Positions 29,971 to 56,053 of a DNA stretch of 64,000 nt are shown here, one piece after another. Location: NCBI GenBank assembly GCA_016208765.1, contig JACQXK010000065.1, forward strand, positions 64,962-128,961, written 5' to 3'. The DNA comes from Candidatus Omnitrophota bacterium (lineage in GTDB: Bacteria > Omnitrophota > Gorgyraeia > Gygaellales > Profunditerraquicolaceae). Position 1 is the first letter of the stretch, and each line of letters starts with the position of its first letter. The notes under the pieces were generated by a model that was not told the origin of the DNA, searched no databases, and saw only the letters and a list, made by a program, of their open reading frames with translations. Both the position numbers and the translations under genes were made by a program.

Positions 29971-30687
29971 ATGTATTTGTCCATAATTATACCGGCTTAT
30001 AACGAAGAAAAAAGATTAGCTGTAACCCTTGATAAAATACGCGGATATTTAGAAAATAAGAATTTTGATTTTGAAGTTATTGTAGTTGATGATGGCAGTA
30101 AAGATAGAACAGTTGCGGTTTCAGTAAAAAGTCTTTTGTTTAAGGAAGGAAATCTGAAAGTTTTAAGAAATGCAGAAAATAGAGGAAAAGGTTTTTCTGT
30201 GAGGCAGGGAATTTTAAATAGTAAGGGTGAATTTGTTTTATTTAGCGATGCTGACCTTTCTACCCCTATTCAAGAGCTGGATAAGCTATATGAATATATA
30301 AAAAGCGGCTTTGATTTTGTTATTGGTTCGCGCAGCTTAGGAGATTCAGATGTTCAGGTGCGTCAGCCGTGGGTTAGAGAGCGGATGGGAAAGGTTTTTA
30401 ATTATTTTGTAAAACTGTTGCTTGTTTCAGGTTTTAGTGATACCCAGTGTGGCTTTAAGCTCTTAAGACGAGAAGTTGCTTATAAAATTGCGTCTTTGTC
30501 AAAGATCGATGGATTTTGTTTTGATGTTGAAATGCTTTATTTGGCGAGAAAACTTAATTATAAAGTAAAAGAGGTTGGGGTGATCTGGTTAAATTCTGTT
30601 CAGAGCAAGGTTAGGGTTTTGGGGAGTTCCTTTGATATGTTCAAGGATCTTTTACGCATTAAGGCTATGCATAAATGCATTTCATAA
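29971..30687 (+). CDS. GT2 polyprenyl-phosphate glycosyltransferase (DPM/DPG synthase-like)
   Basis: LSIIIPAYNEE...VIVVDDGSKD, DADLSTP (DxD). Confidence 0.75.
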   Translation: MYLSIIIPAYNEEKRLAVTLDKIRGYLENKNFDFEVIVVDDGSKDRTVAVSVKSLLFKEGNLKVLRNAENRGKGFSVRQGILNSKGEFVLFSDADLSTPIQELDKLYEYIKSGFDFVIGSRSLGDSDVQVRQPWVRERMGKVFNYFVKLLLVSGFSDTQCGFKLLRREVAYKIASLSKIDGFCFDVEMLYLARKLNYKVKEVGVIWLNSVQSKVRVLGSSFDMFKDLLRIKAMHKCIS

Positions 30688-32366: not shown

Positions 32367-32367
32367 T

Positions 32368-34602
32368 ATGGATAAGAGAAAAGACCTTGGTTATATCGGA
32401 TTGTTTGTAGTAATTGTTATTTTTGTTTTTTGGGATGTAGTTATTTTAAAATCCGCTTTTCTTAAAGGTGATTATGCCCAGCAATTTTTCCCCTGGTATA
32501 AGATTTACTCAGATAGTATAAAATCGTTCCATCTTCCTTTGTGGACAAATTATGTCCAGTGTGGGTTTCCTTTATTTGCCGAAGGGCAAATCGGCTCATT
32601 ATATCCTTTTAATTTGCTTTTTTTCTTTTTTCTTCCTTTTAAGGCTGCTTACAATTATTCATTTCTATTTCATTTTGTCCTTGCCGGAGTATTCACGTAT
32701 TTATTTTCAAGAAAATTAAAGGCGGCACCTTCGGGAGCTTTTTTGGCAGCCATACTATTTTGTTTTGGCAGTGTTTATGCCGGTTGTTTTGTAAATACAT
32801 CCAGCTTAAAATCTTTGGCGTATTTTCCGTTAGTCCTGCTTTTGTTTGAAACCTATTTAGAAAAAAGAAAAATCGGCTTTCTATTTTTAATTGGCGTAAT
32901 CGTTGGTTTGCAATTTCTATGCGGGGCAATGCAAATGACTGTTTACGCCCTGTTTTTTTACACAGTTTACTTTATGTATCGCAGCATTATAGAGAAAAGG
33001 CGCCTTATTGTTTGTTTTAAAGAGATAGCATTAATATCAGCTATTTCGTTTATGATTTCTTTGCCGCAATTATATTTTACCTCTGAATTGGCCAGTTATT
33101 CAAACCGTCAGGTTGCAAATCTTGGTTTTAGCCTTTGGAATTCGTTTAACCCATTATCTATGATCGGTGTTTTTCTGCCTTATTTAGGAGGCGTATTTAC
33201 AAAAGGTAATCTTATCTATGTTGGAGTTATTGGTTTTTTCTTTGTTTTTCTTGGAGGTTGGGTTTTTAAAAAAGAAAAAACAACCAGGGCTCTAATTTTG
33301 ATGTTTGTTTTTGCTCTGTTTTTGTCTTTAGGAAAGTTCAATCCAGTTTATGTTTTGTTAATAAAGATTTTTAAGTTTTATTATTTTCGCGCTCCGTCCA
33401 GGTTTGTGTATTTTGTAGTTTTTTCGTTAAGCATTTTAAGCGGGTTAGGTTTTTCTTATTTTAGCCGTGCCAGGCAAGCAATTCCAAAGATCATTTACAA
33501 GATATTTTTTGTCCTTGTGGCGCTATCGCTTGGTTTGGTTCTTACAGTAAAGGCTGTTTTTTATTTCTGGGGCAAGGAAATGCTTTTCTTCCTGAAAGGG
33601 TATGTAAGTAAGCATGTTTTTGGCCAAGTTTATCACCGCTATGATTTAGAAACTTACTTAAACAAAACGGAGTCTTTTTATAATGAAATGCTGGCAAGAT
33701 TTTCTTTTAGTAATCCCGTTGTTATTTTTTCAATAGTTATTTTAGTTTTATCAGCAGCCTTAATCTATTTTCTTAATTCAAAAAGAACGAAGCTGGTAAG
33801 ATCGTTATGTTTTCTTTTAATTTTTATTGAATTGTTTTTCTTTAGCTATATTTCAAGCGCAATCCGGGGAAATCTGGCAAACTTTAAAGATATCTCTCCC
33901 AAGGAAGTTAGTGTGATTTCTTTATTAAGAGATGATAAAGAAATCTCTAGAATTTTACCTTTTGGTGAGTTTAGTTCTTTACCTTCTTGGGCAATGCCAA
34001 GCTTAAACGCATATTACAAAATTGAGAGCGTGGGTTTTTATTCGCCACTTTTAAACCGCGATTATTATCTGGTTGCACAGGATCTTGGGATTGTTGATGA
34101 TTCACTTGGTATTGTCCCTGTTAAAAAAGAGAAGCTATTTGAGAAAATTGACTTAGTAAGAGATTTAAATGTTAAGTATATTATTTCTGACATGGGGTTA
34201 GAAAATTCTAACTTAGAGTTTTTAACGAAAGAAAATGGGAGCTTTCTTTATCGTTTAACTGGTTATAAAAAGCGTTTTGAGTTTATTCCTTCTTGCGGCG
34301 GCTCTAAGGCAGAAATTGAGGTTAAGATGTATGTCCCTGGGGAGTTAAGCCTCATGGTTAGAAGTGAAAGCAGTGGTATTTTTATATTTAGAGAGAAATA
34401 TTATCCGGGGTGGCAAGCTACGATTGATGGAAAAGTTGTTGAAATTAAGAGGTTCAATGATATTTTTCAGTCAATAAAGGTGCCAGCGGGAGAGCAAAAA
34501 ATTGATTTTAGATTTCAGCCCGTTAATCTTAACTTGTTTATGCTGGTATCAGGGCTGGTTTTTATATTTTGTCTCTGGTTTGGTTTAAGGCGGTGTAAAT
34601 AA
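32368..34602 (+). CDS. YfhO-family GT-C membrane glycosyltransferase
   Basis: 744 aa with YfhO N-terminal signature (GDYAQQFFPWYKIY...PLWTNYVQCGFPL) and a large C-terminal extracytoplasmic domain. Confidence 0.7.
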   Translation: MDKRKDLGYIGLFVVIVIFVFWDVVILKSAFLKGDYAQQFFPWYKIYSDSIKSFHLPLWTNYVQCGFPLFAEGQIGSLYPFNLLFFFFLPFKAAYNYSFLFHFVLAGVFTYLFSRKLKAAPSGAFLAAILFCFGSVYAGCFVNTSSLKSLAYFPLVLLLFETYLEKRKIGFLFLIGVIVGLQFLCGAMQMTVYALFFYTVYFMYRSIIEKRRLIVCFKEIALISAISFMISLPQLYFTSELASYSNRQVANLGFSLWNSFNPLSMIGVFLPYLGGVFTKGNLIYVGVIGFFFVFLGGWVFKKEKTTRALILMFVFALFLSLGKFNPVYVLLIKIFKFYYFRAPSRFVYFVVFSLSILSGLGFSYFSRARQAIPKIIYKIFFVLVALSLGLVLTVKAVFYFWGKEMLFFLKGYVSKHVFGQVYHRYDLETYLNKTESFYNEMLARFSFSNPVVIFSIVILVLSAALIYFLNSKRTKLVRSLCFLLIFIELFFFSYISSAIRGNLANFKDISPKEVSVISLLRDDKEISRILPFGEFSSLPSWAMPSLNAYYKIESVGFYSPLLNRDYYLVAQDLGIVDDSLGIVPVKKEKLFEKIDLVRDLNVKYIISDMGLENSNLEFLTKENGSFLYRLTGYKKRFEFIPSCGGSKAEIEVKMYVPGELSLMVRSESSGIFIFREKYYPGWQATIDGKVVEIKRFNDIFQSIKVPAGEQKIDFRFQPVNLNLFMLVSGLVFIFCLWFGLRRCK

Positions 34603-36255
34603 ATGAAGAAAACTTCTGTTAATCTATTGGCTTTTTTTCTTTTGGTGATTTTTGCGCTTTTGGCGTTTACAAGTATTTGGCCGGATAGAAAGTCACCGAC
34701 TTGCGATGAATTGGCGCACCATATCCCTACGGGATATATTTTGTTAACCAAGCATGATTACAAAATGGATACTTCGCATCCTCCTTTATCGCGTTACATC
34801 GTGGCTTTACCTTTGAAAGTTTTTATGCATTTAAGCGTTCCTAACGATTCTAAAGAATGGAGAAGGGCAGATCGTTCGGAGTTTGGGAAGGATTTCTTCT
34901 ACAAATACAATAACCAGCCTCAAAGAATTATATTTTATAGCAGGCTTGCAATAATTCTTGTCGGGCTGTTTTGCGGTTTGATTTTATTTTACTGGACAAA
35001 GAGGGCTTATTCTCCAGAAACGGCTTTATTTGCTTTATTTTTCTATTCTTTTTGCCCGAATATCTTGGCGAATACTGCGCTTGCAACCACCGATATGGTG
35101 GCTACCTGTTTTATTTTACTTTCAGCAGCTTGTTTCTGGTTTTATTTAAGAAATAACTCGCTGCGTAATATTATATTTGCCGGAATTTCTTTAGGCTTGG
35201 CTCAGCTTTCCAAGTATACGTCGGTTTTACTTTATCCAATTTTTATTTTAGTTTTTCTATTCGGATTTAAAGAGTTTGATAAAAACAAGAGAAAGGTGAT
35301 TTTCTGGCAAATTTTGTCAATTTTTGCTATTTCTATAATTGTGCTTTGGGCAGGATATGGTTTTGATTTTGAGCCTATACTTAAGAATGCAATGAGACAA
35401 AATGAGAAATTAGCAATTATACAGAATATTGTTTTAAAATTGTTTCCAACTGCCAGTACAGGGTTACTTCAAAGATTTGATTACTTTTTGTTAAATGTGC
35501 CAGTCCCCTTAGGGACGCATATCTTGGGGGTTTTAGGAATATTGCGCCATGGCTATGAAGGACATGGGACATTTTTCTTAGGTAAGTGGTCAGCACAAGG
35601 GAATCCTTTGTATTTTTTTGTAGCGTTTTTAATAAAAACACCTATACCGGCAATAGTTTTTCTTTTTGCGGGAATCATTGTTTGTTTTAAGGAAAAGATA
35701 AAGTTGGCTGAGAAAATTATTTTAACTACCATCTTAGTGTTGTTTACTGCTGCTTCTATGAATAAGCTGCAATTGGGGCTTAGGTATATTCTGCCAATTT
35801 ACCCTTTTTGTTTTATTTTAGCAGCAAGAAGCATTATTCTGTGGAAGAAGGTGTTTTTTAGATTATTTATGGTTATTTTGATGTTTTGGTATATTTTAGC
35901 TAATTTTTTTAGCTGGCCGAATTATTTGAGTTATTTTAACGAGTTTATCGATGGGCCAAAGAATGGGTATAAATATCTCAGAGATTCTAATATTGACTGG
36001 GGGCAGGATTTGCCCGAATTAGCAAAGTATATCAAAGATCATAAGATTAAAGAAATCAAGCTTATCTATTTCGGTACAGCAGATCCATCTTCTTATGGGA
36101 TAAGATATGCAAATTTTGAACCTCAGGATTATTTGTTTCCCAGGAAAGCAGTCTATGCTATTAGCGTGCACAAGCTGGAATCTGCTACATGGGCCTCTTC
36201 ATTAACCCCTACCGCAAGAATCGGTTATTCAATTTACGTCTACGACTTACGTTAA
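34603..36255 (+). CDS. GT-C glycosyltransferase, ArnT/PMT (GT39/83)-like
   Basis: PTCDELAHHIP loop motif (DE...H) after TM1. About 13 TM helices. Confidence 0.6.
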   Translation: MKKTSVNLLAFFLLVIFALLAFTSIWPDRKSPTCDELAHHIPTGYILLTKHDYKMDTSHPPLSRYIVALPLKVFMHLSVPNDSKEWRRADRSEFGKDFFYKYNNQPQRIIFYSRLAIILVGLFCGLILFYWTKRAYSPETALFALFFYSFCPNILANTALATTDMVATCFILLSAACFWFYLRNNSLRNIIFAGISLGLAQLSKYTSVLLYPIFILVFLFGFKEFDKNKRKVIFWQILSIFAISIIVLWAGYGFDFEPILKNAMRQNEKLAIIQNIVLKLFPTASTGLLQRFDYFLLNVPVPLGTHILGVLGILRHGYEGHGTFFLGKWSAQGNPLYFFVAFLIKTPIPAIVFLFAGIIVCFKEKIKLAEKIILTTILVLFTAASMNKLQLGLRYILPIYPFCFILAARSIILWKKVFFRLFMVILMFWYILANFFSWPNYLSYFNEFIDGPKNGYKYLRDSNIDWGQDLPELAKYIKDHKIKEIKLIYFGTADPSSYGIRYANFEPQDYLFPRKAVYAISVHKLESATWASSLTPTARIGYSIYVYDLR

Positions 36256-36384: not shown

Positions 36385-37692
36385 ATGAAAATAAAGCTTA
36401 TAAACCTACCTCAGCCAAATTCACTTGATGACAAACTTGACCCGCCTTTGGGCCTGATGTATATCAAGTCTTTTCTAAAAAAACACAATATTGATTCTGA
36501 TATTGTAGATTTGCCTTTTGTAGACAGAGATGATTGGAAGGATAAAATAGGGGATGCTGATTTATATGGCATGACTGTTTATTCTGCCTCATTATATTTG
36601 GCAAAAGAAGTAGCTAAAATAGCCAAAGAAAATAATCCAAAAGCTAAAATTATCGTTGGTGGGCCGCACCCTACAACATTGCAGGAGCAAACTCTTGAAG
36701 ATGAACCTAATTTTGACATTGTTGTCATGCAAGAGGGTGAAAAAACAATGCTTGAAATTGCCGAGGGAAGAAGCCTCAGCGCGATTGATGGTATTGTTTA
36801 CCGGCATTCACGGCAAATCTATAAGAATACCAATAGAGGCTTGATCTCAGATTTAGATATTATTCCTTTTCCCGATAGAGAATTGCTTGCTCAAAATAAA
36901 TATACCAGAAAAGTTTTAGGTAATTTTGCAACATCTTTGATTACCAGCCGCGGGTGCGTTTTTAATTGTAGTTTTTGCTGTAAAGATGTGTTTGGCTCTA
37001 AGGTGCGGTTTAGGTCCATAAATAGCGTAATTGAAGAAGTAAAACAGGTTATAGAGCGTTTCGGAATCAGGCATTTCTTATTTTATGACGATACCTTTGT
37101 TTTAAAGCGAGATAGATTATATTCTCTTTGCGAAAAGCTTTCTAAGTTGGATATTATTTTTCGCTGTAATGGCAATGCGAGGCATAATACTTTTGAAGAT
37201 TATCAGATGTTGTATGAGGCTGGATGCAGAGAAATTGCATTTGGGATTGAAACAGGTTCGCAGAGAATCCTGAATATAATTAATAAAGGGGTTACTGTTG
37301 AGCAGAACAGAAAGGCAATTATTGATGCAAGAAGGGCAGGATTATTGGTAAAAGCATATTTAATGATTGGAAATCCCGGTGAGACAAAAGAAAGCGTGCA
37401 GGAAACGATTAAATTTGTTAAAGAAACCGATCCTGATCAGTTTACGCTTTTTACATTTGTGCCTCTTCCTGGTTCTGATATCTGGAAGAATCCTGAAAAA
37501 TACAAAATCAAGATTATTAACAGGGATTTCAAGGAATATTTTAATATTGCCGGAGATAATGAGGGCGGGGCGGTTATTGAAACTGAGGAATTAGGCTCTG
37601 ATGATATTAGAAAATTAAGGGAAGAACTTTTGGGTTTTCTTAAATTAAAGGGCCAGCGTGGCCGCTTACAGGATTATTACACTAAACTATGA
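36385..37692 (+). CDS. B12-binding domain radical SAM enzyme (class B rSAM, likely methyltransferase)
   Basis: N-terminal B12-binding Rossmann (GGPHPT) and CxxxCxxC (CVFNCSFCC). Confidence 0.85.
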   Translation: MKIKLINLPQPNSLDDKLDPPLGLMYIKSFLKKHNIDSDIVDLPFVDRDDWKDKIGDADLYGMTVYSASLYLAKEVAKIAKENNPKAKIIVGGPHPTTLQEQTLEDEPNFDIVVMQEGEKTMLEIAEGRSLSAIDGIVYRHSRQIYKNTNRGLISDLDIIPFPDRELLAQNKYTRKVLGNFATSLITSRGCVFNCSFCCKDVFGSKVRFRSINSVIEEVKQVIERFGIRHFLFYDDTFVLKRDRLYSLCEKLSKLDIIFRCNGNARHNTFEDYQMLYEAGCREIAFGIETGSQRILNIINKGVTVEQNRKAIIDARRAGLLVKAYLMIGNPGETKESVQETIKFVKETDPDQFTLFTFVPLPGSDIWKNPEKYKIKIINRDFKEYFNIAGDNEGGAVIETEELGSDDIRKLREELLGFLKLKGQRGRLQDYYTKL

Positions 37693-37952
37693 GTAAAAAA
37701 GAGGAGCAGGATATGGAGATTAAAGCTAATGAGGTTTATACCACCCAGGAAGCACAGAGATTGTTAAAAGTCAGCCCAAGCACAACCATGCGTTTGATTA
37801 AAAAAGGTATTATCCGGACGGCAAAAGTCGGCAAGCAATATCGGATTATGGGAAAAGAACTTCTGCGGATACTTTCTCCAGAATTAGAAGACAAAGTAGG
37901 CAAGATTTACAATAAGGGTAGATCATGGCTACATGAGAGTGCAGATGAATAA
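37689..37952 (+). CDS. excisionase-family helix-turn-helix DNA-binding protein
   Basis: YTTQEAQRLLKVSPSTTMRLIKKGIIRTAKVGKQYRI matches the HTH_17/excisionase DNA-binding domain. 87 aa, overlapping both neighbours. Confidence 0.7.
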   Translation: MSKKEEQDMEIKANEVYTTQEAQRLLKVSPSTTMRLIKKGIIRTAKVGKQYRIMGKELLRILSPELEDKVGKIYNKGRSWLHESADE

Positions 37953-39006
37953 TAATCTTAATCCTGCAATGGCGCAAGAAATTAAAATAGGGAACAGAAA
38001 GATAGGCAATGCCCATAGGCCTTTAGTAATTGCAGAAATAGGCATTAATCATGAAGGCCGGATAGAAAAAGCTTATGAAATGATTGATGATGCTCATCGG
38101 GTGGGTTGTGAGTGTGTCAAATTTCAATGCCATGTAGTTGAAGATGAAATGATCCCTAATGAAGTAATTCCTGGAAATGCTACGGAGAGCATATGGGCGA
38201 TGATGAAAAGATGCCAGCTTGCTGAGCAGCAAGAAGCCTTGCTGAAGCAGTATACAGAATCAAAAGGCATGCTGTTTCTTTCTACTCCGTTTTCCAGGGC
38301 AGCAGCTGATAGACTTGAAAATATGGGTGTTTTAGCCTATAAAATAGGGTCAGGTGAATGTAATAACTATCCTCTTATTGAGCATATTGCTGGATTTAGA
38401 AAACCGGTTATTTTGAGTACTGGGATGAATGACATTGTTTCTATTAAAAAAGCCGTTTCTATTATTGAAAGCTACGGGATACCATATGCGCTTCTTCATT
38501 GTACTTCTATTTACCCAACACCTTATGAAAAAGTAAGGCTCGGTGCTTTAGGTGAAATCAAAAATAAATTTCCAAATGCAGTGGTAGGCTTAAGCGATCA
38601 TTCCATAGGAAACTATACAAGTTTTGCTGCAGTTGCATTAGGGGCAAGTATAATTGAAAAACATTTCACGTCTAATAAAGCTTGGCCCGGTTCAGACATA
38701 TCTTTATCAATTGATCCTGAAGAGTTGAAGGAATTAATTGTTGGCTCAGAAGCTATTTATCAGGCAGGAGGTGCATCTAAGACTATTCTCAGCGAGGAGC
38801 AAAAAACCATAGATTTTGCTTATGCTTGTGTTGTTTCTATAAAAGATATTAAGGCTGGTGATTTCTTATCGGCAGAAAATATTTGGGTTAAAAGGCCGGG
38901 GACAGGGGAAATAAAAGCAGAAAATTTTAAAAGTATATTAGGAAAAAAGGTTAAAACTGAAATTAAAGCTAATTCTCAGATAAAATGGAGTGATATTGGT
39001 GGATAA
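37933..39006 (+). CDS. neuB: N-acylneuraminate (nonulosonic acid) synthase, NeuB family
   Basis: IGNRKIGNAHRPLVIAEIGINHEG...CECVKFQ and a C-terminal SAF/antifreeze-like domain. Confidence 0.9.
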   Translation: MRVQMNNNLNPAMAQEIKIGNRKIGNAHRPLVIAEIGINHEGRIEKAYEMIDDAHRVGCECVKFQCHVVEDEMIPNEVIPGNATESIWAMMKRCQLAEQQEALLKQYTESKGMLFLSTPFSRAAADRLENMGVLAYKIGSGECNNYPLIEHIAGFRKPVILSTGMNDIVSIKKAVSIIESYGIPYALLHCTSIYPTPYEKVRLGALGEIKNKFPNAVVGLSDHSIGNYTSFAAVALGASIIEKHFTSNKAWPGSDISLSIDPEELKELIVGSEAIYQAGGASKTILSEEQKTIDFAYACVVSIKDIKAGDFLSAENIWVKRPGTGEIKAENFKSILGKKVKTEIKANSQIKWSDIGG

Positions 39007-40123
39007 AAAGAAAATAGTATTTTTAACTGGTACGCGTGCTGATTTTGGAAAACAAAAATCCCTGATTGAGATTACATCTAAATCAAAGAATTTTGAAACC
39101 CATATTTTTATAACAGGTATGCATATGTTAACTAAATATGGGGCGACGTCTTTTGAGGTTGAGAGCTGCGGTTTTAAGAATACTTACCAATTTATTAATC
39201 AAACTCATCATGACAGCATGGATTGTATCCTTGCTAAGACCATTGAGGGGTTCTCCCATTATGTGCAAGAAATTAAGCCTGATTTGATTGTTGTCCATGG
39301 AGATAGGGTTGAGGCTTTAGCTGGAGCAATAGTCGGTTCGCTTAATAATATCTTAGTGGCACATTTAGAAGGAGGCGAGCTTTCCGGGACAGTGGATGAG
39401 CTAATCAGGCATGCAGTAAGCAAGCTTTCTCATGTCCATTTAGTGGCCAATCATCAGGCTGAAAAAAGGCTTATTCAGATGGGAGAACACAAAGATTCAA
39501 TATTTATTATTGGTTCTCCTGATATTGATATAATGGAGTCGGATAAATTAAAATCATTGAGTTTTGTAAAAAAACGTTATGGTATTAAATTTAACAAGTA
39601 TGCGATTTTAATATTTCATCCGGTCACTACCGAGATTGCTAGTGTTTCTTGCCAGGCAAATAATATAACTGATGCAGTAATTGATTCAGGGTCTAATTTT
39701 GTTGTTATTTACCCTAATAATGATTTTGGGTCTGATTTAATCCTCAATGTTTATAAAAAGCTTGATGGTAATGCGAGGATAAAAGTTTTTTCTTCAATAC
39801 GTTTTGAATATTTTATTATTTTACTAAAAAACGCACAATTTATCTTAGGAAATTCAAGCTCAGGTATTAGAGAGGCGCCATATTTTGGTATTCCAACTAT
39901 CAACATAGGAAGCAGGCAGAATTCGCGGGCTTTAAGCAAAGAGATTATTCATTGCGGTTATTCTAAAAGTGAAATAATAACAGCTATTGATTTAGCTAAA
40001 AATATTAAAGTTAATAAAACTATGCATTTTGGCTCAGGCAAGAGCGATAAGTTTTTTATTAAGTTATTAAATTCTGGCAAGCTTTGGAGAATAGCCAAGC
40101 AGAAGCTGTTCTGTGATTTATAG
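38990..40123 (+). CDS. neuC: UDP-N-acetylglucosamine 2-epimerase (hydrolysing), NeuC/LegG family
   Basis: VFLTGTRADFGK...HGDRVEALAGAIVGSL...AHLEGGE Epimerase_2 motifs. GTG/TTG start. Confidence 0.85.
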   Translation: MILVDKKKIVFLTGTRADFGKQKSLIEITSKSKNFETHIFITGMHMLTKYGATSFEVESCGFKNTYQFINQTHHDSMDCILAKTIEGFSHYVQEIKPDLIVVHGDRVEALAGAIVGSLNNILVAHLEGGELSGTVDELIRHAVSKLSHVHLVANHQAEKRLIQMGEHKDSIFIIGSPDIDIMESDKLKSLSFVKKRYGIKFNKYAILIFHPVTTEIASVSCQANNITDAVIDSGSNFVVIYPNNDFGSDLILNVYKKLDGNARIKVFSSIRFEYFIILLKNAQFILGNSSSGIREAPYFGIPTINIGSRQNSRALSKEIIHCGYSKSEIITAIDLAKNIKVNKTMHFGSGKSDKFFIKLLNSGKLWRIAKQKLFCDL

Positions 40124-40144: not shown

Positions 40145-41584
40145 ATGACAAACAAAATACGGATAATACCAAGATTAGATATTAAGGGCCCGAATGTAGT
40201 TAAAGGAATTCAGCTGGAAGGATTAAGGGTCGTTGGGAATCCTTCTGAGTTAGCCCGTAAATATTATAATGAGGGCGCGGATGAGTTGATATACATAGAT
40301 ATTGTAGCCAGCCTTTATGACCGAAATAACTTGGCACATATTGTAGAAGAGACTACGAAAAACGGTGTTTTTATTCCAATTACTGTTGGTGGTGGGTTAA
40401 GAAGCTTGAGCGATATAGGAAAGATGCTCAGGTCTGGGGCAGATAAAGTAGCTATTAATACGGCGGCGGTGAAAAATCCAAATTTAATCAAGGAAGCGGC
40501 TATGGCCTTTGGTTCATCTACGATTGTGCTTTCGGTTGAAGCGAAAAAAATTAGTGAAGGTAACTGGGAAGTTTATATTGAAAATGGAAGGCAAAAAACT
40601 CAATTAGACGTTATAGAATGGATAAAGCAAGGAATTGAATTGGGCGCAGGGGAAATTTTAATTACTTCTGTAGATAAAGATGGGACAAAGAGTGGCTATG
40701 ATATGGATTTAATTAATGCAGTTGCTTTAATTTCCAAGGTTCCTGTGGTAGTTTCAGGCGGCGCGGGTTCTTTGGAGGACGTGAGCCAATGTATGCTAAA
40801 TAAGAATATTAATGGAATTTCTTTGGCTACCTTGCTTCACTACGGGGAGTTGAATATTAATGATATTAAGTCTGTACTTAAGCAAAGGTTTAACAATAGG
40901 GTTCGTCACGAAATTAAAAAAGAGAATTATGTTTTGGATAAAAGAATTGATGTTGAGGTTTCAATAATTGATTATAACTTAAGTAATTTGCATAGCGTGA
41001 GGAATGCATTTAGGCAAATAGGCGCGGAAGCAAAATTTATTAATAATCCAGAAGATGTTTTGAATGCTAAGTGTTTAGTTTTACCGGGTGTTGGAACTTT
41101 TGAAGAAGGAATGAAGAATTTAACAACTAAAGGACTGGATGATGCTATAAGAAAATACGTTAGAATGGGAAAACCTTTATTGGGAATTTGTCTGGGAATG
41201 GAGCTGTTGTTGACGAAAAGTTATGAATTCGGCGAACATGATGGGTTGGGCATAATTGAGGGAGAAGTCCTTCCTTTTAGAAAAGAAGATTTTTCCTGCG
41301 AAGATTACAAGATTCCTCATGTTGGGTGGAATACAATTTCTATGGATACAAATTGCAAGGGGTCAATTTTTGATTTAGGTTTAAACAATATTGATGCATA
41401 TTTTGTGCACTCTCTCTATGTAAAGCCGGATAATTTGAGCGATGTTTACGGGTCAACGGATTATTTTGGCAAGAAATTTGCTTCTGTGATACAAAGAGGG
41501 AATATTTTTGGTTGTCAGTTTCATCCGGAGAAAAGCGGGAATATCGGTTTAAAAATTCTAGGAAACTTTTGTAAAAAAGGATAG
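40145..41584 (+). CDS. HisF-like cyclase fused to HisH-like glutamine amidotransferase (order F then H)
   Basis: N-terminal (beta/alpha)8 HisF motifs (IIPRLDIKG, ITVGGGLRS, SVDKDGTKSGYD). C-terminal class I GATase with catalytic Cys (GICLGMELL) and His (CQFHPEKSG). Confidence 0.8.
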   Translation: MTNKIRIIPRLDIKGPNVVKGIQLEGLRVVGNPSELARKYYNEGADELIYIDIVASLYDRNNLAHIVEETTKNGVFIPITVGGGLRSLSDIGKMLRSGADKVAINTAAVKNPNLIKEAAMAFGSSTIVLSVEAKKISEGNWEVYIENGRQKTQLDVIEWIKQGIELGAGEILITSVDKDGTKSGYDMDLINAVALISKVPVVVSGGAGSLEDVSQCMLNKNINGISLATLLHYGELNINDIKSVLKQRFNNRVRHEIKKENYVLDKRIDVEVSIIDYNLSNLHSVRNAFRQIGAEAKFINNPEDVLNAKCLVLPGVGTFEEGMKNLTTKGLDDAIRKYVRMGKPLLGICLGMELLLTKSYEFGEHDGLGIIEGEVLPFRKEDFSCEDYKIPHVGWNTISMDTNCKGSIFDLGLNNIDAYFVHSLYVKPDNLSDVYGSTDYFGKKFASVIQRGNIFGCQFHPEKSGNIGLKILGNFCKKG

Positions 41585-41598
41585 AAACGGAGAAAACA

Positions 41599-42822
41599 AT
41601 GGATGTAAAGATTAAAAAAGTAGACCTTGGTTTACCTGAAAAAGTTTTATTTTGCAAGAAATGCGTAATTTCTAATCAAAGGCCAAGTTCAACAATTGAG
41701 TTTAAAAATCGCCCTGGGGATGTAAAAAAAACAATCAATTTTGGCACGGACCAAGTCTGTGATGCTTGCAGATTTGCAGAATATAAAAATACAAAGATTG
41801 ATTGGATGGCCCGGGAGAATGAATTAAAGAAGTTGTGTGATAAATTTCGTAGAAATGATGGATATTGGGATTGTATTGTACCAAGTAGTGGAGGCAAGGA
41901 TAGCGCATTTACGGCGCATAAGTTGAAATACAAGTATGGCATGAATCCTTTGACTGTTACCTGGGCTCCGCATGAATATACGGATATAGGCAGAAGAAAC
42001 CTTCAGAGTTTTATTAATTCTGGTTTTGACAATATTTTAGTGACGCCTAATGGTAAAGTTCATAAATATTTAACAAAATTAGCTTTTTTGAATCTTTGCC
42101 ATCCGTTCCAGCCTTTTATTCTCGGGCAGAGATTTATAGGGCCTAAAGTTGCAATTGAAAAGAATATTCCTCTTATTTTCTACGGAGAAAACCAGGCGGA
42201 GTATGGCAATGACATAAAAGAAAATGAAGACCCGAGAATGAGTATGAATTTTTTCTTTTCTGAGAGGGATTATGACAAGATATTTCTGGGAGGTGTGTCT
42301 GCAAGCGAGCTTATAATGAAACATGGTTTAACTAAGAATGATATAGAAATGTATTTACCTCCAGCCAAGGATGAGATTTTATCAAAGAAAGTTTCAGTAT
42401 ATTACTTAGGGTATTACATTAAATGGGATCCTCAGGAGTGTTTTTATTATGCAGCGCAAAATACCGGTTTCCAAACTAATACAGAGAGAACCGAGGGTAC
42501 TTATTCAAAATACAGCAGCATTGATGATAAAATTGATTATATTCATTATTTTACAACTTTGATAAAATTCGGTATCGGCAGGGCTACCTATGATGCTGCT
42601 CAAGAGATAAGAAACGGGAAAATTTCGCGGGAAGAAGGCGTTGCGCTGGTGAAGAAGTATGATACAGAGTTTCCTAAAAAGTTTTTTCAGGACTGTTTAA
42701 GGTATATGGATATTACTGAAGAGCAATTTTGGGATACTGTTAATAAGTTCCGGTCGCAGCATTTATGGGAAGAAGTTGACGGAAAGTTTATTTTAAAACA
42801 GCAGGTTTCTAATAACATTTAA
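41599..42822 (+). CDS. N-acetyl sugar amidotransferase (WbuX/PseA family, PP-loop ATPase)
   Basis: PP-loop SGGKDS, N-terminal Cys pairs (CKKCVIS, CDAC), 407 aa. Adjacent to the HisFH-like protein, as in WbuXYZ systems. Confidence 0.75.
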   Translation: MDVKIKKVDLGLPEKVLFCKKCVISNQRPSSTIEFKNRPGDVKKTINFGTDQVCDACRFAEYKNTKIDWMARENELKKLCDKFRRNDGYWDCIVPSSGGKDSAFTAHKLKYKYGMNPLTVTWAPHEYTDIGRRNLQSFINSGFDNILVTPNGKVHKYLTKLAFLNLCHPFQPFILGQRFIGPKVAIEKNIPLIFYGENQAEYGNDIKENEDPRMSMNFFFSERDYDKIFLGGVSASELIMKHGLTKNDIEMYLPPAKDEILSKKVSVYYLGYYIKWDPQECFYYAAQNTGFQTNTERTEGTYSKYSSIDDKIDYIHYFTTLIKFGIGRATYDAAQEIRNGKISREEGVALVKKYDTEFPKKFFQDCLRYMDITEEQFWDTVNKFRSQHLWEEVDGKFILKQQVSNNI

Positions 42823-42833
42823 GTTTATTAATA

Positions 42834-43547
42834 ATGTATAAAAATAAAAAAATTCTAGCAGTTATTACGGCCCGGGGCGGGAGCAAGGGTATTCTTGGTA
42901 AGAATATAAAACCTTTATCAGGGAAGCCGCTTATTTACTGGACCCTGAGTGAAGCAAGAAAGAGTAAATATATTGATAAGATTATTGTTAGCACTGATGA
43001 TCCTGGTATCGCTGATATTTCAAGAAAACATGGAGCGGAAGTGCCTTTTTTGAGGCCCAAAAAACTTGCTCAGGATAAATCCAGCTCTATGGATGTTTTA
43101 TTTCATGCAATTGACTGGTTAAAGCAGAGAGGGTTGGTTTTTGATATTGTAGTGCTTTTGCAACCAACGTCTCCATTAAGGACCAAAACAGATATTGATG
43201 AGGCCTTAATGGCATTATTTAAAAGAAATGCTATGGCAATTGTATCTGTGGCAGAGGCATTTTATCCTCCGTTGTGGACAAACACTTTGCCTTCGGATGG
43301 AAATATGAAAAATTTCTTGCCAAAAGGGTTTGTTAATAAGAACCGTCAAAGCCTTCCAAAATATTACCAATTTAACGGAGCAATATATTTAGGGCTTATT
43401 GAATACATTAAGAAAAAGAGGTCTTTTTTAGGAGAAAGTACATATGCATATCTTATGCCAAAGGAGAGGTCAGTTGATATTGATGATACTATTGATTTTT
43501 TAATGGCAGAGATATTGTTAAAGAAGCAGAAAGATATTAGAAAATGA
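42834..43547 (+). CDS. neuA: acylneuraminate (nonulosonate) cytidylyltransferase, NeuA-like
   Basis: ILAVITARGGSKGILGKNI...GKPLIYWT...IVSTDD is the CMP-NeuAc synthetase signature. Confidence 0.8.
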   Translation: MYKNKKILAVITARGGSKGILGKNIKPLSGKPLIYWTLSEARKSKYIDKIIVSTDDPGIADISRKHGAEVPFLRPKKLAQDKSSSMDVLFHAIDWLKQRGLVFDIVVLLQPTSPLRTKTDIDEALMALFKRNAMAIVSVAEAFYPPLWTNTLPSDGNMKNFLPKGFVNKNRQSLPKYYQFNGAIYLGLIEYIKKKRSFLGESTYAYLMPKERSVDIDDTIDFLMAEILLKKQKDIRK

Positions 43548-45427
43548 GTAAAAAATTAATTTTTGTTGATAATATTGAGTTCATTAAAGACAATTCTTGC
43601 AGAATAGCTGAGATAATAAGAAATGAAAAAGCCTTAGTGTTGCCTTTATCGGATTTAGTCTTTTTGTATATGAAAAACAAGGGATTCAATTGTATTGATT
43701 TCCATGATTTTGAATATAAGGGCCTGTATGAAAATGTTTATTCTGTGGCAAGGGAATGGGGGACAGGTTGGTATAAACCAAGAAATAAAGACTTTTCTGA
43801 GGTAGATTCAGTTTCCCTGGGGACAATGATAGATTGGTTTATGATATATTTCTTTACTCATTTCTTGAGGATGCATCTTTTTTTAGGTGAGGTTATTAAG
43901 AACCTTAAGCCTAACGAAATAATATTCATTACAGCAAAAGAAGTGGATTATATGGAAGCGCCGTTAAAATTACGAAATGTTGACTGTAATTTATTGCAGC
44001 ATATGGTTAAAAGTATTGCAGGAACATTAAATCTTCACCTGTCTACCAAATTAATAAAGCTTACATCTCAAGAAAAATCTCAAAAACGCAAATTTAATTT
44101 TATCCGTCCAGTTTTTTACTATTTTAATGTTGTTTTATCAAGGTTGTTTAGTCTCTGCAACTTTATCTTACGTAAAAACAGAAAAATTATCTTTTACGAA
44201 GGTTTCCGGCACTTTTTTCCAGTAATGGCATCTAGTTTATTAAGAAATTTGGAGATAATCCATTTAGAAAAGGTAATTGGCTTATCTTTAATGCAGAAGT
44301 TGTATTCAAGAGGAATTAGAATAGATGTTTTAAATAAGAAAAATAGTCTCAATAAAATAAAAAAGCCTTGTTTTGATTTAATTAAAATTAAGGCAGAGCT
44401 TTCCGGTTATTTTATTTACAAGGGACAGGATTTTTTGGATTCTGTCTGGCCGAGGATTGAATATTTATTTAGATTTTTCCTGCCTGATTATGTTTATCCG
44501 GATTTGATAAACATAACGAAGTATATGCGGGCAAGCAATGCTAGTTGCTTAATCGTAGAAAATGATTCTACTTATGATGAGAAAATGCTTGTTATTGTTG
44601 CGAAAAAGTTTGGAGTTTATACGGTTGTAATACAAAATGGTGCGACTTGGATAGGTGAAGCTTTTAAAAGTAGAGAAATCTCTATTCATGATTTTTACCC
44701 TTTGATTGCAGATAAGTTTTTGGCTTATGGAGAATTGAATAAGAGTTGGTATAAAAATATGAATGTTGACCCAGAAAAAATTGTTGTTACTGGGGCTGCA
44801 AGGTTTGACGAGTATTATAAAACAAGAAATTCGTTTAAAATCTTAAAAAGAAAGAGCAATGCTGTCCTTGTCCTGTTAAATGATGTGACAGACCAGGACG
44901 TGGTAGTTTCAGAATATGATGTTACGGCCAAAATGTTTTATAAACATATAAATGAATTTATAAAAATAGCAAAAAATAGCCCAGACGTTAAATTTATTAT
45001 AAGGCCGCATCATAATGAGGGGTTCTGGAGAAGTATTTTTGAAGAAGAGATGCAAGGCTTGAATAATTTAGAAATTTCTCGTAAGGATACTTTGGTTCGG
45101 ATATTGCCTTTGGTGAATATAGTGGTTGGATATTATTCTACTGCTTTACTTGAAGCTTTAATCTTCAGGAAAATCGTTGTTAGTTTAGATACAGGAGAGT
45201 TTCTTAATCCATTTAAGCTATGGGATTATGATTTGTCAAAAAGGGTGGAGAACTTTACAGAATTAGAGGCGCAGATAAAGATTTATCTTTTTGATGAGCC
45301 GGAGCAAAGATTATTTATCAAGAAAATTGATGATAACTTGCGTTTGTTTAATTTTAATGATGACGGGAAAGCAGCAGAACGAATTGCGGGTTATTTAGGC
45401 AAAACTTTAATTAATAATTATGCATAG
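43544..45427 (+). CDS. hypothetical large protein, possible GT-B glycosyltransferase (TagF/KpsS/sialyltransferase-like)
   Basis: 627 aa. C-terminal region carries RPHHNEGFW followed about 40 aa later by a VVGYYSTALLEAL block, the layout of HP-motif GT-B enzymes. Confidence 0.3.
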   Translation: MSKKLIFVDNIEFIKDNSCRIAEIIRNEKALVLPLSDLVFLYMKNKGFNCIDFHDFEYKGLYENVYSVAREWGTGWYKPRNKDFSEVDSVSLGTMIDWFMIYFFTHFLRMHLFLGEVIKNLKPNEIIFITAKEVDYMEAPLKLRNVDCNLLQHMVKSIAGTLNLHLSTKLIKLTSQEKSQKRKFNFIRPVFYYFNVVLSRLFSLCNFILRKNRKIIFYEGFRHFFPVMASSLLRNLEIIHLEKVIGLSLMQKLYSRGIRIDVLNKKNSLNKIKKPCFDLIKIKAELSGYFIYKGQDFLDSVWPRIEYLFRFFLPDYVYPDLINITKYMRASNASCLIVENDSTYDEKMLVIVAKKFGVYTVVIQNGATWIGEAFKSREISIHDFYPLIADKFLAYGELNKSWYKNMNVDPEKIVVTGAARFDEYYKTRNSFKILKRKSNAVLVLLNDVTDQDVVVSEYDVTAKMFYKHINEFIKIAKNSPDVKFIIRPHHNEGFWRSIFEEEMQGLNNLEISRKDTLVRILPLVNIVVGYYSTALLEALIFRKIVVSLDTGEFLNPFKLWDYDLSKRVENFTELEAQIKIYLFDEPEQRLFIKKIDDNLRLFNFNDDGKAAERIAGYLGKTLINNYA

Positions 45428-48213: not shown

Positions 48214-48972
48214 ATGAATTTGAAAGAAAAGCTAAAGAATGGGCAAGTAAGTATTGGTTCTTGGTTAACTATTGGAGATGCTTCAGTAGCAGAAATAATG
48301 TCAAAATCTGGTTTTGACTGGTTGGCAGTGGATATGGAGCATTCAGCGATTACGCTTAAAGAGGCGCAAGATTTAATACGGATAATTGAATTGTGTGGAG
48401 TGGTTCCATTAGTGCGAGTTGGAGAAAATAACCCTAATTTGATAAAAAGAGTTATGGATGCCGGTGCGCATGGCGTAATTGTCCCAATGGTGAATAGCAA
48501 AGATGATGCTATCAAGGCGTTCAATTCTACAAAATACCCGCCTTTAGGAAAAAGGGGTGTAGGTCTGGCAAGAGCACAAAATTACGGTTTGGGTTTTGAG
48601 CGTTATAAGAAATGGGTAAATAAAGGCAGTATTGTAATTGTTCAAATTGAGCATATAGAAGCAGTAGAAAATCTGGAAGAGATATTTTCCGTTGATGGAC
48701 TTGATGGTTTTATAATCGGGCCATATGATCTTTCAGCTTCTTTGGGCACTCCGGGAGATTTTAAGAACAGTAAATTTGTCAGGGCAATTAATAGAATAAA
48801 AGAAGTTGCTAAAAAATATGAAATACCTGCTGGCTTGCACGTAATTGATCCAAGCGCTGTAAAATTAAATCATTCCATAAAGGAAGGTTATAAATTCATT
48901 GGGTTTAGTTTGGATGCGTTATTGTTAGGAACAAAATGTAAGCAGGAAATGGAAGCAATTAATTATAAATGA
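48214..48972 (+). CDS. HpcH/HpaI family class II (pyruvate) aldolase
   Basis: Strong family pattern GSWLTIG...GFDWLAVDMEHS...VRV...GVIVPMV...YPPLGKRGVG...VQIEH...DGFIIGPYDLSAS. Confidence 0.85.
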   Translation: MNLKEKLKNGQVSIGSWLTIGDASVAEIMSKSGFDWLAVDMEHSAITLKEAQDLIRIIELCGVVPLVRVGENNPNLIKRVMDAGAHGVIVPMVNSKDDAIKAFNSTKYPPLGKRGVGLARAQNYGLGFERYKKWVNKGSIVIVQIEHIEAVENLEEIFSVDGLDGFIIGPYDLSASLGTPGDFKNSKFVRAINRIKEVAKKYEIPAGLHVIDPSAVKLNHSIKEGYKFIGFSLDALLLGTKCKQEMEAINYK

Positions 48973-49460
48973 AATTATTAAAAGCAGTAACAAAATCATT
49001 TCTTAATTCACTAAGGCCGCTTGTTGAGCAAGCAGCAAGATTTTATGGGATTGAGGTTAGGAGGAGTTTTGTTGTGTATGGGCAAAATAATCTAGTTTTC
49101 GAAGAGGAGCAATCTTGTCTGGAAAGATTTGTACCGAAATCAACGTATTTCAACGTCAGGTCAGGAAATATTCATGTAGGCAAGAATACCATGTTTGGGG
49201 AGAATGTTATGGTTATTACTGGAAAACACATGGATGTTGCCGAGTCAGGAGAGAAAGGGTTGCCTCTTTACAGTGTTCCTACAGAAGGAAGGGACATTTC
49301 TATTGGAGAGAGTTGCTTTATAGGTAGTGGAGCAATTATTTTAGGTAAGGTTAATATTGGAGATTTTTCTGTTATTGGCGCAGGGGCAGTTGTTACAAAA
49401 GATGTGCCTGAACGCGTTTTTGTTGCCGGTACTCCGGCTAAGATCATAAAAAAATTATAG
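48969..49460 (+). CDS. hexapeptide-repeat (LbH) acetyltransferase
   Basis: C-terminal left-handed beta-helix repeats (IGESCFIGSGAIILGKVNIGDFSVIGAGAVV). Confidence 0.75.
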   Translation: MKLLKAVTKSFLNSLRPLVEQAARFYGIEVRRSFVVYGQNNLVFEEEQSCLERFVPKSTYFNVRSGNIHVGKNTMFGENVMVITGKHMDVAESGEKGLPLYSVPTEGRDISIGESCFIGSGAIILGKVNIGDFSVIGAGAVVTKDVPERVFVAGTPAKIIKKL

Positions 49461-49465
49461 AAAAT

Positions 49466-50986
49466 ATGGAAAACAAAGAATTTAAGGTTTTGTTGATTTA
49501 TCCTGCGCTTTTTATGCAAACTGGGTTGCCTTTAGGGGTATCCTCTTTGGTGGCGACGTTAAAGAAGAGGGGTATTGACTGTAAAGTATTTGATACAGTC
49601 TTCTATCAGGATTCCGGAGAGGTTGATGAAAACATTGAAAGGGCGGTAACATTGCATTCGGTAAAAGCGGTAGATTATAATTCAGTAGGAATGCTGCCCA
49701 ATAGCAGTTCTATGGAGGAAGATCTATCCCGAATTATGGCTGAATATAAACCGGATTTAGTCGGTTTAAGCGCCATAGAATGTATTTTTGAACGAGGGAT
49801 CAAATTAACTCGTTTGGCAAAGAAAATTAGCAACGTTCCAGTGATTGCCGGAGGAGTTTTTGCGACGCTTGCTCCAGATATTGTTATCCAGGAAAATTCA
49901 ATTGATTTTGTTTGCGTTGGAGAGGGGGAAGAGGTATTGGCGGACCTGTGCGAGCGTATAAAAAATAAGGAGAGTTATTTAGATGTAAGGGGTTTGTGGA
50001 TTAAAGATAGCGGGAAGATTCTTAAGAATAAGGCAATGCCATTGCAAACGCTTGATTCGGTTATTGAACCGGATTTCTTTGAATTTAACCCCAAGCTTTT
50101 TTACCGGCCTATGCAGGGGAATCTTTTTAAGACAATCCCAGTAGAATTTGCCCGTGGTTGCCCTTATCAGTGCACATATTGCGCAGAACCATCTTTGAGC
50201 AGGTTCTACAAAGCTTCTGGAGAGACGGGTTATTTTAGGACCAAGTCAATGAAAAGAGTTATTTCTGAAATTAAGAAAGGAATGGAGCTATATAAGCCAG
50301 AATTTTTCTATTTTGCTACCGAGACTTTTCTAGCGATGAGCGATGAAGCATTTGACGAATTTTATAATGGATATAAAAAAATTAAGCTTCCATTCTGGAT
50401 TCAAACCCGCATAGAGACTATTACTGATGAGCGGATTCAAAAGCTTAAAGAAGTGGGGCTCTTTTGGTTGACCATAGGAATAGAGCACGGTAATGAGGAT
50501 TTCCGGAAAAAATACCTGAAGCGGAATATGAAGAATGAAAGGATCTTTGAAGTAATGAAGATTCTTGATAGATGTGGCCAAGGAGTATCGTTAAATAGCA
50601 TTATTGGGTTTCCTTTTGAGACACGCGAGCTTATATTTGATACAATAATGCTTAATCGTAAACTATCCCAGATTAATAATCGTGTCAGATGTAATATTTC
50701 AATATTTACTCCTTTTAGAGGGTGTGAATTATATGATCTCTGTGTGTCTAACGGTCTTTTTGAGCCTGTCAAATACACGAACCATACAAATGTGAGTAAA
50801 GGAAGCCTGCTTAAATCAAAATTGCTCACGAATCAAGAGCTTAATGGGCTATTCAGGACATTTAATCTTTATGTGTATTTACCGGAAGAATATTTTGAGA
50901 GAATTAGATTAGCTCAGCAACCAACCGATGAAGGCAATAAAGAGTTTTTGTTTTTAAGTAGCAAGCTTAAAGAGTATATGTATTAA
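49466..50986 (+). CDS. B12-binding domain radical SAM enzyme
   Basis: B12-binding N-domain (KVLLIYPALF...) and CPYQCTYC (CxxxCxxC). Confidence 0.85.
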   Translation: MENKEFKVLLIYPALFMQTGLPLGVSSLVATLKKRGIDCKVFDTVFYQDSGEVDENIERAVTLHSVKAVDYNSVGMLPNSSSMEEDLSRIMAEYKPDLVGLSAIECIFERGIKLTRLAKKISNVPVIAGGVFATLAPDIVIQENSIDFVCVGEGEEVLADLCERIKNKESYLDVRGLWIKDSGKILKNKAMPLQTLDSVIEPDFFEFNPKLFYRPMQGNLFKTIPVEFARGCPYQCTYCAEPSLSRFYKASGETGYFRTKSMKRVISEIKKGMELYKPEFFYFATETFLAMSDEAFDEFYNGYKKIKLPFWIQTRIETITDERIQKLKEVGLFWLTIGIEHGNEDFRKKYLKRNMKNERIFEVMKILDRCGQGVSLNSIIGFPFETRELIFDTIMLNRKLSQINNRVRCNISIFTPFRGCELYDLCVSNGLFEPVKYTNHTNVSKGSLLKSKLLTNQELNGLFRTFNLYVYLPEEYFERIRLAQQPTDEGNKEFLFLSSKLKEYMY

Positions 50987-50998
50987 AGGATTCTGCAA

Positions 50999-52648: not shown

Positions 52649-52649
52649 A

Positions 52650-53423: not shown

Positions 53424-53436
53424 AGAGATAAAATTT

Positions 53437-55367: not shown

Positions 55368-55368
55368 T

Positions 55369-56037: not shown

Positions 56038-56053
56038 TTACAAGGAGCTGGAA

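Follow-up and report, generated by a model that had tools for sequence, protein, structure and literature searches.

A single-chain HisF-HisH fusion next to a WbuX-type amidotransferase in a nonulosonic acid operon of an uncultured Omnitrophota bacterium

A PP-loop amidotransferase, a HisH-type glutaminase and a HisF-type barrel are encoded together in Escherichia coli O145 (WbuX/WbuY/WbuZ), in Pseudomonas aeruginosa O5 (WbpG/HisH2/HisF2) and among the acetamidino genes of Methanococcus maripaludis (AglZ/HisF2 model). In P. aeruginosa, a predicted contact between HisF2 and WbpG was confirmed by pull-down, which its authors regarded as support for HisF2/HisH2 supplying the amidotransferase with ammonia (PMC11445079). 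The only solved member of the amidotransferase family, the N-acetyl sugar amidotransferase (NASAT) of Legionella pneumophila (8WEX), has a PP-loop ATP site and a Zn-Cys4 motif, and a reaction turning ATP into AMP and PPi at the PP-loop was proposed from this structure (PMC10607449). Acetamidino nonulosonic acids are also made in Campylobacter, where PseA and PtmG produce Pse5Am7Ac and Leg5Am7Ac (PMC3958885; for PtmG, a 2026 preprint). Here, a stretch of 64,000 nucleotides from a Candidatus Omnitrophota metagenome-assembled genome (MAG) was analyzed (GCA_016208765.1, contig JACQXK010000065.1, positions 64,962 to 128,961; hereafter the window), in which a 479-aa protein with an ATG start (40145..41584, + strand) carries the HisF-type and HisH-type domains in one chain. 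On the basis of its domain content, residue conservation, clade membership and conserved neighborhood, it is proposed with good confidence that this protein is a fused HisF2-HisH2, the module that generates and conducts ammonia in a system for acetamidino (sugar-N-C(=NH)CH3) modification.

The original prediction placed a HisF barrel at the N-terminus and a HisH glutaminase at the C-terminus of this protein, and Pfam, NCBIfam and PDB searches all agree with it. Pfam assigns residues 6-236 to His_biosynth (E 3e-64) and residues 274-475 to class I GATase (E 1e-20), while the NCBIfam hisF/WbuZ models cover residues 4-248 and the HisH model TIGR01855 covers residues 272-477 (198.4 bits against a cutoff of 105.4); therefore, the HisF domain is first and the HisH domain second. 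In the PDB sequence search, residues 6-249 align with HisF proteins, including the reconstructed HisF-LUCA (4evz, 262 bits), and residues 272-478 align with bacterial HisH and with the N-terminal glutaminase of yeast HIS7 (1jvn), so that the order is opposite to that of HIS7, as had been claimed. On the + strand, the HisF-type (beta-alpha)8 barrel (residues 1-252; 40145..40900) was delimited by alignment to Thermotoga maritima HisF and by Foldseek, the variable linker (approximately residues 253-270; 40901..40954) by a dip in the predicted local distance difference test (pLDDT) and the lack of an alignment consensus, and the HisH-type class I glutaminase (residues 271-479; 40955..41581) by the models, the PDB search and its residues. 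The linker of the window protein measures about 18-25 aa.

The AlphaFold2 model of the fusion, built from a 60-sequence alignment, has a mean pLDDT of 91.6 and a predicted template modeling score (pTM) of 0.92, which indicates, within the model, a fixed two-domain arrangement; confidence falls to about 70 only at residues 251-270, which correspond to the linker. A Foldseek search with this model retrieved HisF structures at a template modeling (TM) score of 0.92; as the two domains are in permuted order with respect to HIS7, only single-domain HisF matches were obtained. Unfused glycan-type HisF proteins stop 1-3 residues past a conserved C-terminal "VR" motif, which aligns with T. maritima R249, a residue that touches HisH in the 1GPW complex. 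From the "VR" motif, an extension of about 18 residues would plausibly be long enough to get to the glutaminase's first strand.

The distribution of this domain order was surveyed in sequence databases, as the original prediction had suggested. A single occurrence in the window was considered and rejected, since the best 120 database relatives (clusters at 90% identity, a lower bound of at least 120) are all full-length F-then-H fusions of 437-541 aa, 45-66% identical, with linkers of 14-78 aa (median about 24) that show no consensus in the alignment. The named sources of these clusters are MAGs of Omnitrophica, Woesearchaeota, Nanoarchaeota and Promethearchaeota, and in metagenomes the fused form is plentiful. 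When 1.84 billion cluster representatives (50% identity) were searched exhaustively without a profile, the best 150 comprised 39 fusions in F-then-H order, 39 in H-then-F order and 72 single HisF proteins. Reviews of his-gene fusions list the H-F order only (PMC1963479; PMC11237513), and a text search of the literature found no description of an F-then-H HisF-HisH fusion. The acetamidino pathway itself is an established one; the fused layout, frequent among uncultured microbes, is undescribed in the literature searched.

For the residue signature, the halves of the 120 fused relatives, 21 unfused WbuX-adjacent HisF/HisH pairs and 57 operon-type pairs (hisH-(hisA)-hisF without WbuX) were aligned to T. 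maritima HisF and HisH, whose numbering is used here. The ammonia-gate residues R5, E46, K99 and E167 were found in all groups, in every sequence covering the position, and the window protein retains them as R6, E47, K101 and E170, together with D12. The interface residue D98 is Asp in 112/120 and Glu in 8/120 of the fused set. In the glutaminase half, the triad C84/H178/E180, the PGVG oxyanion strand, W123, Y138 and K181 are present in the window protein (C349/H460/E462, PGVG 314-317, W395, Y419 and K463) and in at least 114/120 fused homologues, and these positions and D98 are kept across the aligned groups. An intact glutaminase triad and a TIGR01855 score above cutoff are common to the glycan paralogues and do not discriminate them from housekeeping enzymes.

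The discriminating positions are in the barrel. In the HisF cyclase reaction, D130 acts as the general base and D11 as the acid (PMC11350729); position 130 is Asp in 56/57 operon-type HisF sequences, and in the fused set it is Glu in 99/120, Gln in 19/120 and Asp in 1/120. The WbuX-linked HisF sequences (n = 21) have Glu in 14, Gln in 2 and Asp in 4. Position 9 is Cys in 56/57 operon-type sequences, and Arg in 117/120 fused and 19/21 WbuX-linked sequences, while A223 is replaced by a bulky hydrophobic residue in both of the latter groups. The window barrel follows this pattern, having R10 in place of C9, E132 in place of D130, and L227. The expectation that the ammonia gate would be kept and the binding residues for PRFAR (the substrate of the cyclase) lost was only half borne out, with gate and triad conserved but the phosphate-binding motifs not lost, the changes being confined to the base and a few lining residues.

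The fused HisF halves share a mean identity of 52% with WbuX-linked HisF and 45% with operon HisF, and in a neighbor-joining tree, none of the 57 housekeeping HisF sequences falls within the clade that unites the fused and WbuX-linked ones (142 sequences). This HisF tree was made by neighbor joining only, with a fused set drawn from the best matches to the query, and the tree of the HisH halves did not separate glycan-type from housekeeping copies. Of the suggested alignment to HisF and WbuZ, closeness to the WbuX-linked proteins was confirmed, although the cutoffs of the WbuZ and AglZ/HisF2 models were missed (see below).

The domain order tracks paralogue type. Among the prokaryotic H-then-F fusions aligned, D130 was found in 36/36 and C9 in 31/36, by which all 36 are of the housekeeping type, and among the aligned F-then-H fusions (n = 32), position 9 is Arg or Lys in 30 and position 130 is Gln or Glu in 23. 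In the genome scan, all 24 WbuX-carrying loci (L001-L024) had the glycan-type arrangement, and WbuX was found in 0/56 operon-type loci; in the metagenome scan, WbuX was present in 24/31 F-then-H loci versus 1/44 H-then-F loci. In both collections, the F-then-H order, fused or split, accompanies WbuX, and the H-then-F order does not. The H-then-F set (P0135, P0140, P0142 and 36 others) also contains three HisH-HisA-HisF triple fusions of 707-933 aa. A WbuX-HisF-HisH triple fusion, which would have served as a Rosetta-stone link, was looked for among the matches and none was found, the matches of 707-933 aa being these HisH-HisA-HisF housekeeping fusions.

The amidotransferase directly downstream of the fusion, also part of the original prediction, was confirmed by its family model. 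This 407-aa WbuX/NASAT-family PP-loop N-acetyl sugar amidotransferase (41599..42822, + strand) starts 14 nt after the fusion, scores 359.9 bits with TIGR03573 (WbuX; cutoff 203.2), and has the motifs SGGKDS at residue 97, CKKC at residue 19 and CDAC at residue 54. It matches the L. pneumophila NASAT crystal structure with 498 bits and about 60% identity.

The two genes lie between those of a nonulosonic acid pathway, all on the + strand, in agreement with the adjacent NeuB, NeuC and NeuA-type genes that had been predicted. Upstream are a Neu-type nonulosonic acid synthase NeuB (37933..39006; Pfam NeuB and SAF, with a match to 1XUU) and a hydrolyzing UDP-GlcNAc 2-epimerase of the NeuC family (38990..40123; TIGR03568, 403.5 bits, above the cutoff of 235.9), and downstream is a CMP-nonulosonate cytidylyltransferase, NeuA/PseF-like (42834..43547; Pfam CTP_transf_3, and 163 bits to the CMP-Neu5Ac synthetase 6ifd). 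The gaps between NeuC, the fusion, NASAT and the cytidylyltransferase are 21, 14 and 11 nt. This neighborhood recurs in the other fused loci that were inspected alongside the window (L001, L002, L081, L082, L084 and L161-L166, of which L161 is P0047, L162 is from Promethearchaeota, and L164-L166 are more distant). A WbuX homologue is present in 11/11 of them, with 330-682 bits to the window protein, and immediately adjoins the fusion in all except L084 and L165; a NeuB-family synthase is found in 11/11, and a NeuC-type epimerase and a cytidylyltransferase in 9/11.

Related split loci bear on the origin of the fusion. In eight of them (L003, L004, L083, L085, L086, L087, L088 and L102), the F and H genes are in one frame with a single TAA or TAG between them, and each is one point mutation short of the fused form. 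The simplest account is that losing the stop codon between them turned the usual glycan-type pair of F and H genes into the fusion, and that the F-then-H domain order is a historical consequence of the F-then-H gene order. The single-chain F-then-H form is a real, widespread variant of the known WbuXYZ and WbpG-HisH2-HisF2 acetamidino system.

In canonical imidazole glycerol phosphate synthase (IGPS), ammonia from HisH passes the R5/E46/K99/E167 gate into the barrel interior and leaves at the C-terminal face. In the module proposed here, the C-terminal glutaminase (C349) would hydrolyze glutamine to NH3, which would enter the gate at the N-terminal face of the HisF-type barrel, pass through it, and be handed to the adjacent PP-loop amidotransferase. 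NASAT would then activate the N-acetyl carbonyl with ATP, releasing AMP and PPi, and NH3 would displace the oxygen to give the acetamidine. The target would most likely be the 5-N-acetyl group of the nonulosonic acid that the flanking NeuC, NeuB and cytidylyltransferase produce. Four elements of this scheme are predictions built on the observations above, namely the route of the ammonia, a NASAT docked on the barrel, the chemistry of ATP and the identity of the sugar. Ammonia channeling to an acetamidino group, as originally proposed, is supported, and the idea was already in the literature with the P. aeruginosa pull-down (PMC11445079).

Several points weigh against this proposal. The HisF half is under the trusted cutoff of three NCBIfam models, namely hisF TIGR00735 (275.6 bits, cutoff 294.55), WbuZ TIGR03572 (261.8 bits, cutoff 299.7) and AglZ/HisF2 NF038364 (190.5 bits, cutoff 310); it is a member of a divergent, fused subclade of the glycan paralogues. 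The window protein has E353 (41199-41201) in the CLGMQ motif, where 118/120 fused homologues have Gln (TmHisH Q88), as do all split and housekeeping HisH sequences examined, and this substitution might weaken glutamine binding. The canonical HisF-HisH interface is assumed from the conserved interface residues, and no biochemical assay of any HisF2/HisH2/NASAT trio was found in the literature examined. Lastly, D11 and both phosphate-binding motifs (G81-G82, N103-T104, G177, G202-G203, A224 and S/T225) are kept, although they are not obviously needed by a passive conduit. The retained D12 and phosphate sites are left unexplained by a pure conduit; therefore, the barrel may still bind a phosphate-bearing ligand, possibly a CMP-sugar. 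A fuller form of this explanation, in which the barrel binds such a ligand (for instance a CMP- or nucleoside diphosphate-sugar substrate or a nucleotide) at the old PRFAR site and turns on the glutaminase, whether as allosteric switch or by forming part of the active site, while NASAT gives the ATP activation, is possible, if on the doubtful side, and it is not exclusive with the ammonia module. Both phosphate sites, D11 and K19 are conserved in the 120 fused and 21 WbuX-linked HisF sequences despite the altered cyclase base, HisH of canonical IGPS is activated by ligand binding at this site of HisF (PMC8115485), and a 2026 preprint suggests that the amidotransferase may prefer nucleotide sugars; on the other hand, the Gly-rich motifs may serve barrel stability, and the NASAT crystal structure has its own wide substrate pocket.

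That the fusion and NASAT amidate another N-acetyl sugar, of the FucNAc or ManNAc3NAcA type, as in E. coli O145 and P. aeruginosa O5, is improbable; the family does act on several sugars (PMC10607449), and the surrounding island has rml genes, a GDP-mannose dehydratase, an aminotransferase and many glycosyltransferases, but the two genes sit tightly, at distances of 11-21 nt, between those for NeuC and the cytidylyltransferase, NeuB accompanies every inspected fused locus and a NeuC-type epimerase nine of the eleven, and the Legionella NASAT, about 60% identical, is from a legionaminic-acid O-antigen cluster. A housekeeping imidazole glycerol phosphate synthase sited in a glycan island by chance would agree with hisF TIGR00735 as the best-scoring NCBIfam model, with TIGR01855 above its cutoff, with the retained D11 and phosphate-binding motifs, and with the name HisF that NCBI gives to the identical database protein, which is from a Candidatus Omnitrophica MAG. 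Against this, the TIGR00735 score is below cutoff, the general base is Glu, with Asp in just one of the 120 fused homologues, the barrel is in the clade of WbuX-linked paralogues, WbuX is present in 11/11 fused loci, and 36/36 aligned housekeeping-type prokaryotic fusions have the opposite order. No hisA, hisB, hisIE or other his genes were found among the annotated open reading frames (ORFs) of the 64-kb window. The change from D130 to Glu, the clade position outside the housekeeping HisF sequences and the lack of his genes in the 64 kb therefore speak against the housekeeping enzyme, which is very unlikely, and the housekeeping alternative foreseen in the original prediction is not what was found. 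Hardest of all to credit is an assembly, frameshift or gene-calling artefact joining two genes. The source is a MAG contig, and a single base error would fuse the genes of the eight split loci with one stop in between; however, the uninterrupted fusion is seen in at least 120 independent clusters from many assemblies with a linker of 14-78 aa, and in 39 clusters at 50% identity among the best 150, and fused proteins add a real linker where unfused HisF proteins stop within a few residues of the C-terminal motif.

Regarding the sugar, the window NeuB has 422 bits and 56% identity to Neisseria meningitidis NeuB (1XUU) and 34% identity to the NeuB of a Legionella MAG (L012), and its 70-85 stretch, which recognizes the substrate's C4-C6 portion, hardly differs from that of the N. 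meningitidis enzyme. This Neu-type NeuB therefore suggests an acetamidino neuraminic acid. The WbuX-linked loci divide sharply by synthase: nine have a Neu-type one with 53-67% identity to N. meningitidis NeuB, namely the window, L001, L002, L008 (Sideroxydans), L024 (SAR86), L083, L107, L125 and L151, and the remaining WbuX-linked loci have Leg-type synthases, 29-39% identical to it. No LegB, LegC or LegH genes were found in the flanks of several of the Neu-type loci. Here it is tentatively put forward, as a possibility held at somewhat under even chances, that the NeuB-NeuC-fusion-NASAT-cytidylyltransferase operon makes CMP-5-acetamidino-neuraminic acid (Neu5Am), the fusion being a self-contained ammonia channel and its phosphate sites sensing the CMP-sugar. 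Weighing against Neu5Am, the window NeuB is just below the cutoff of TIGR03569 (364.1 bits, cutoff 399.65), its position 184 is Ser and not Asn or Tyr, a LegC-like aminotransferase is encoded 10 kb upstream, and the PDB matches of NeuC to the epimerase domain of GNE and to LegG are about equal. The similarity of the cytidylyltransferase is ambiguous as a sugar indicator, and the scores of the window NASAT to Neu-type loci overlap those to Leg-type ones. Evidence for Neu5Am is so far mass-spectrometric only (2026 preprint); fusaminic acid, a mono-amino nonulosonic acid with a 5-acetimidoylamino group, is from Fusobacterium nucleatum. If Neu5Am is made, it would be a charge-neutralized sialic acid, as yet undemonstrated in any glycan, and the Neu-type module, with HisF2/HisH2 fused or split, would extend across Omnitrophota, Sideroxydans, SAR86 and several metagenome contigs.

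The operon is headed by a B12-binding radical SAM enzyme (36385..37692, + strand; Pfam B12-binding and Radical_SAM) and continues co-directionally with an 87-aa ORF, NeuB, NeuC, the fusion, NASAT and the cytidylyltransferase; 3' of the latter are a possible nonulosonate transferase, a flippase and further sugar-modifying genes. The transferase (43544..45427, + strand) is a weak, putative assignment made from sub-cutoff C-terminal matches to a BFO_1060-family glycosyltransferase and TIGR04396, and its product has a counterpart in the fused locus L002 (527 bits). The radical SAM gene also has an orthologue in the same place in L002, which is likewise from Omnitrophota (934 bits); the pair it forms with the 87-aa ORF (window 36385-37952) recurs at L002 2306-3894 (934 and 157 bits) and, with weaker matches, in L013, and may serve a modification of the nonulosonic acid.

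This operon is part of a surface-glycan island spanning about 18.3 to 61.6 kb of the window, with housekeeping genes on both flanks, which includes rml genes, dehydratases such as the GDP-mannose dehydratase, the LegC-like aminotransferase, glycosyltransferases and PMT/YfhO-like membrane proteins. Three large polytopic membrane proteins are encoded in a row just upstream of the operon (30675-36255; 563, 744 and 550 aa), the first matching PMT_2/PMT, the second YfhO and the third being strongly hydrophobic, and these may be glycosyltransferases dependent on lipid-linked sugars. Further downstream, a second module (48214-58384) encodes an HpcH aldolase, a hexapeptide acyltransferase, two radical SAM enzymes, two methyltransferases, a PGDH-like 2-hydroxyacid dehydrogenase, a cyclase-like protein, an SDR, a HAD phosphatase and a KdsB-like cytidylyltransferase (302 bits, above cutoff). 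Its core is seen again beside WbuX/HisF-HisH genes on unrelated contigs (L165 12872-17111 and L019 14015-16563), and it could provide a second CMP-activated acid or a glycerate-type substituent. Every family-assigned ORF of the 64 kb is on the + strand, and GC skew is above 0 in each 2-kb bin, a uniform and unusual strand bias.

The fusion is a natural single-chain HisF2-HisH2, of a pair whose biochemical role in acetamidino sugar formation is so far undemonstrated. Being a 1:1 covalent complex whose partner NASAT shares 60% identity with a solved structure, it is a convenient study system, suited to questions on ammonia tunneling from the HisF barrel to a non-histidine acceptor, on the role of the phosphate sites and on glutaminase switching. 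The E/Q130 and R9 signature and the F-then-H order also provide a simple rule against the misannotation of HisF and HisH, and the link to a Neu-type synthase shows where a genetically encoded acetamidino sialic acid route might be found.

Compared with the known systems, the window fusion shares Arg at position 9 and Glu or Gln at position 130 with WbuX-linked HisF, and it shares with the WbuXYZ and WbpG systems the literature-proposed delivery of ammonia to the amidotransferase. Unlike in those systems, HisF and HisH are one polypeptide, the genes are from an Omnitrophota MAG, and a nonulosonic acid, not a hexosamine or uronic acid, would be the likely substrate. Campylobacter PseA and PtmG are not known to have dedicated HisH/HisF partners. 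HIS7 and the prokaryotic HisHF fusions have the same two folds, triad, gate and interface residues as the window fusion; however, their order is opposite, with the glutaminase first, D130 is kept in HIS7-type proteins as in the 36 aligned prokaryotic fusions, and they serve histidine synthesis and not glycan amidation. The O-antigen acetamidino module of L. pneumophila has, as in the window, linked NeuB, NeuC and cytidylyltransferase genes together with the similar NASAT, and the order HisF-then-HisH is found beside an LPS (lipopolysaccharide)-biosynthesis gene in serogroup gene tables and in the Legionella MAG; in contrast to the window, the Legionella HisF and HisH are separate genes and the synthase is of the Leg type.

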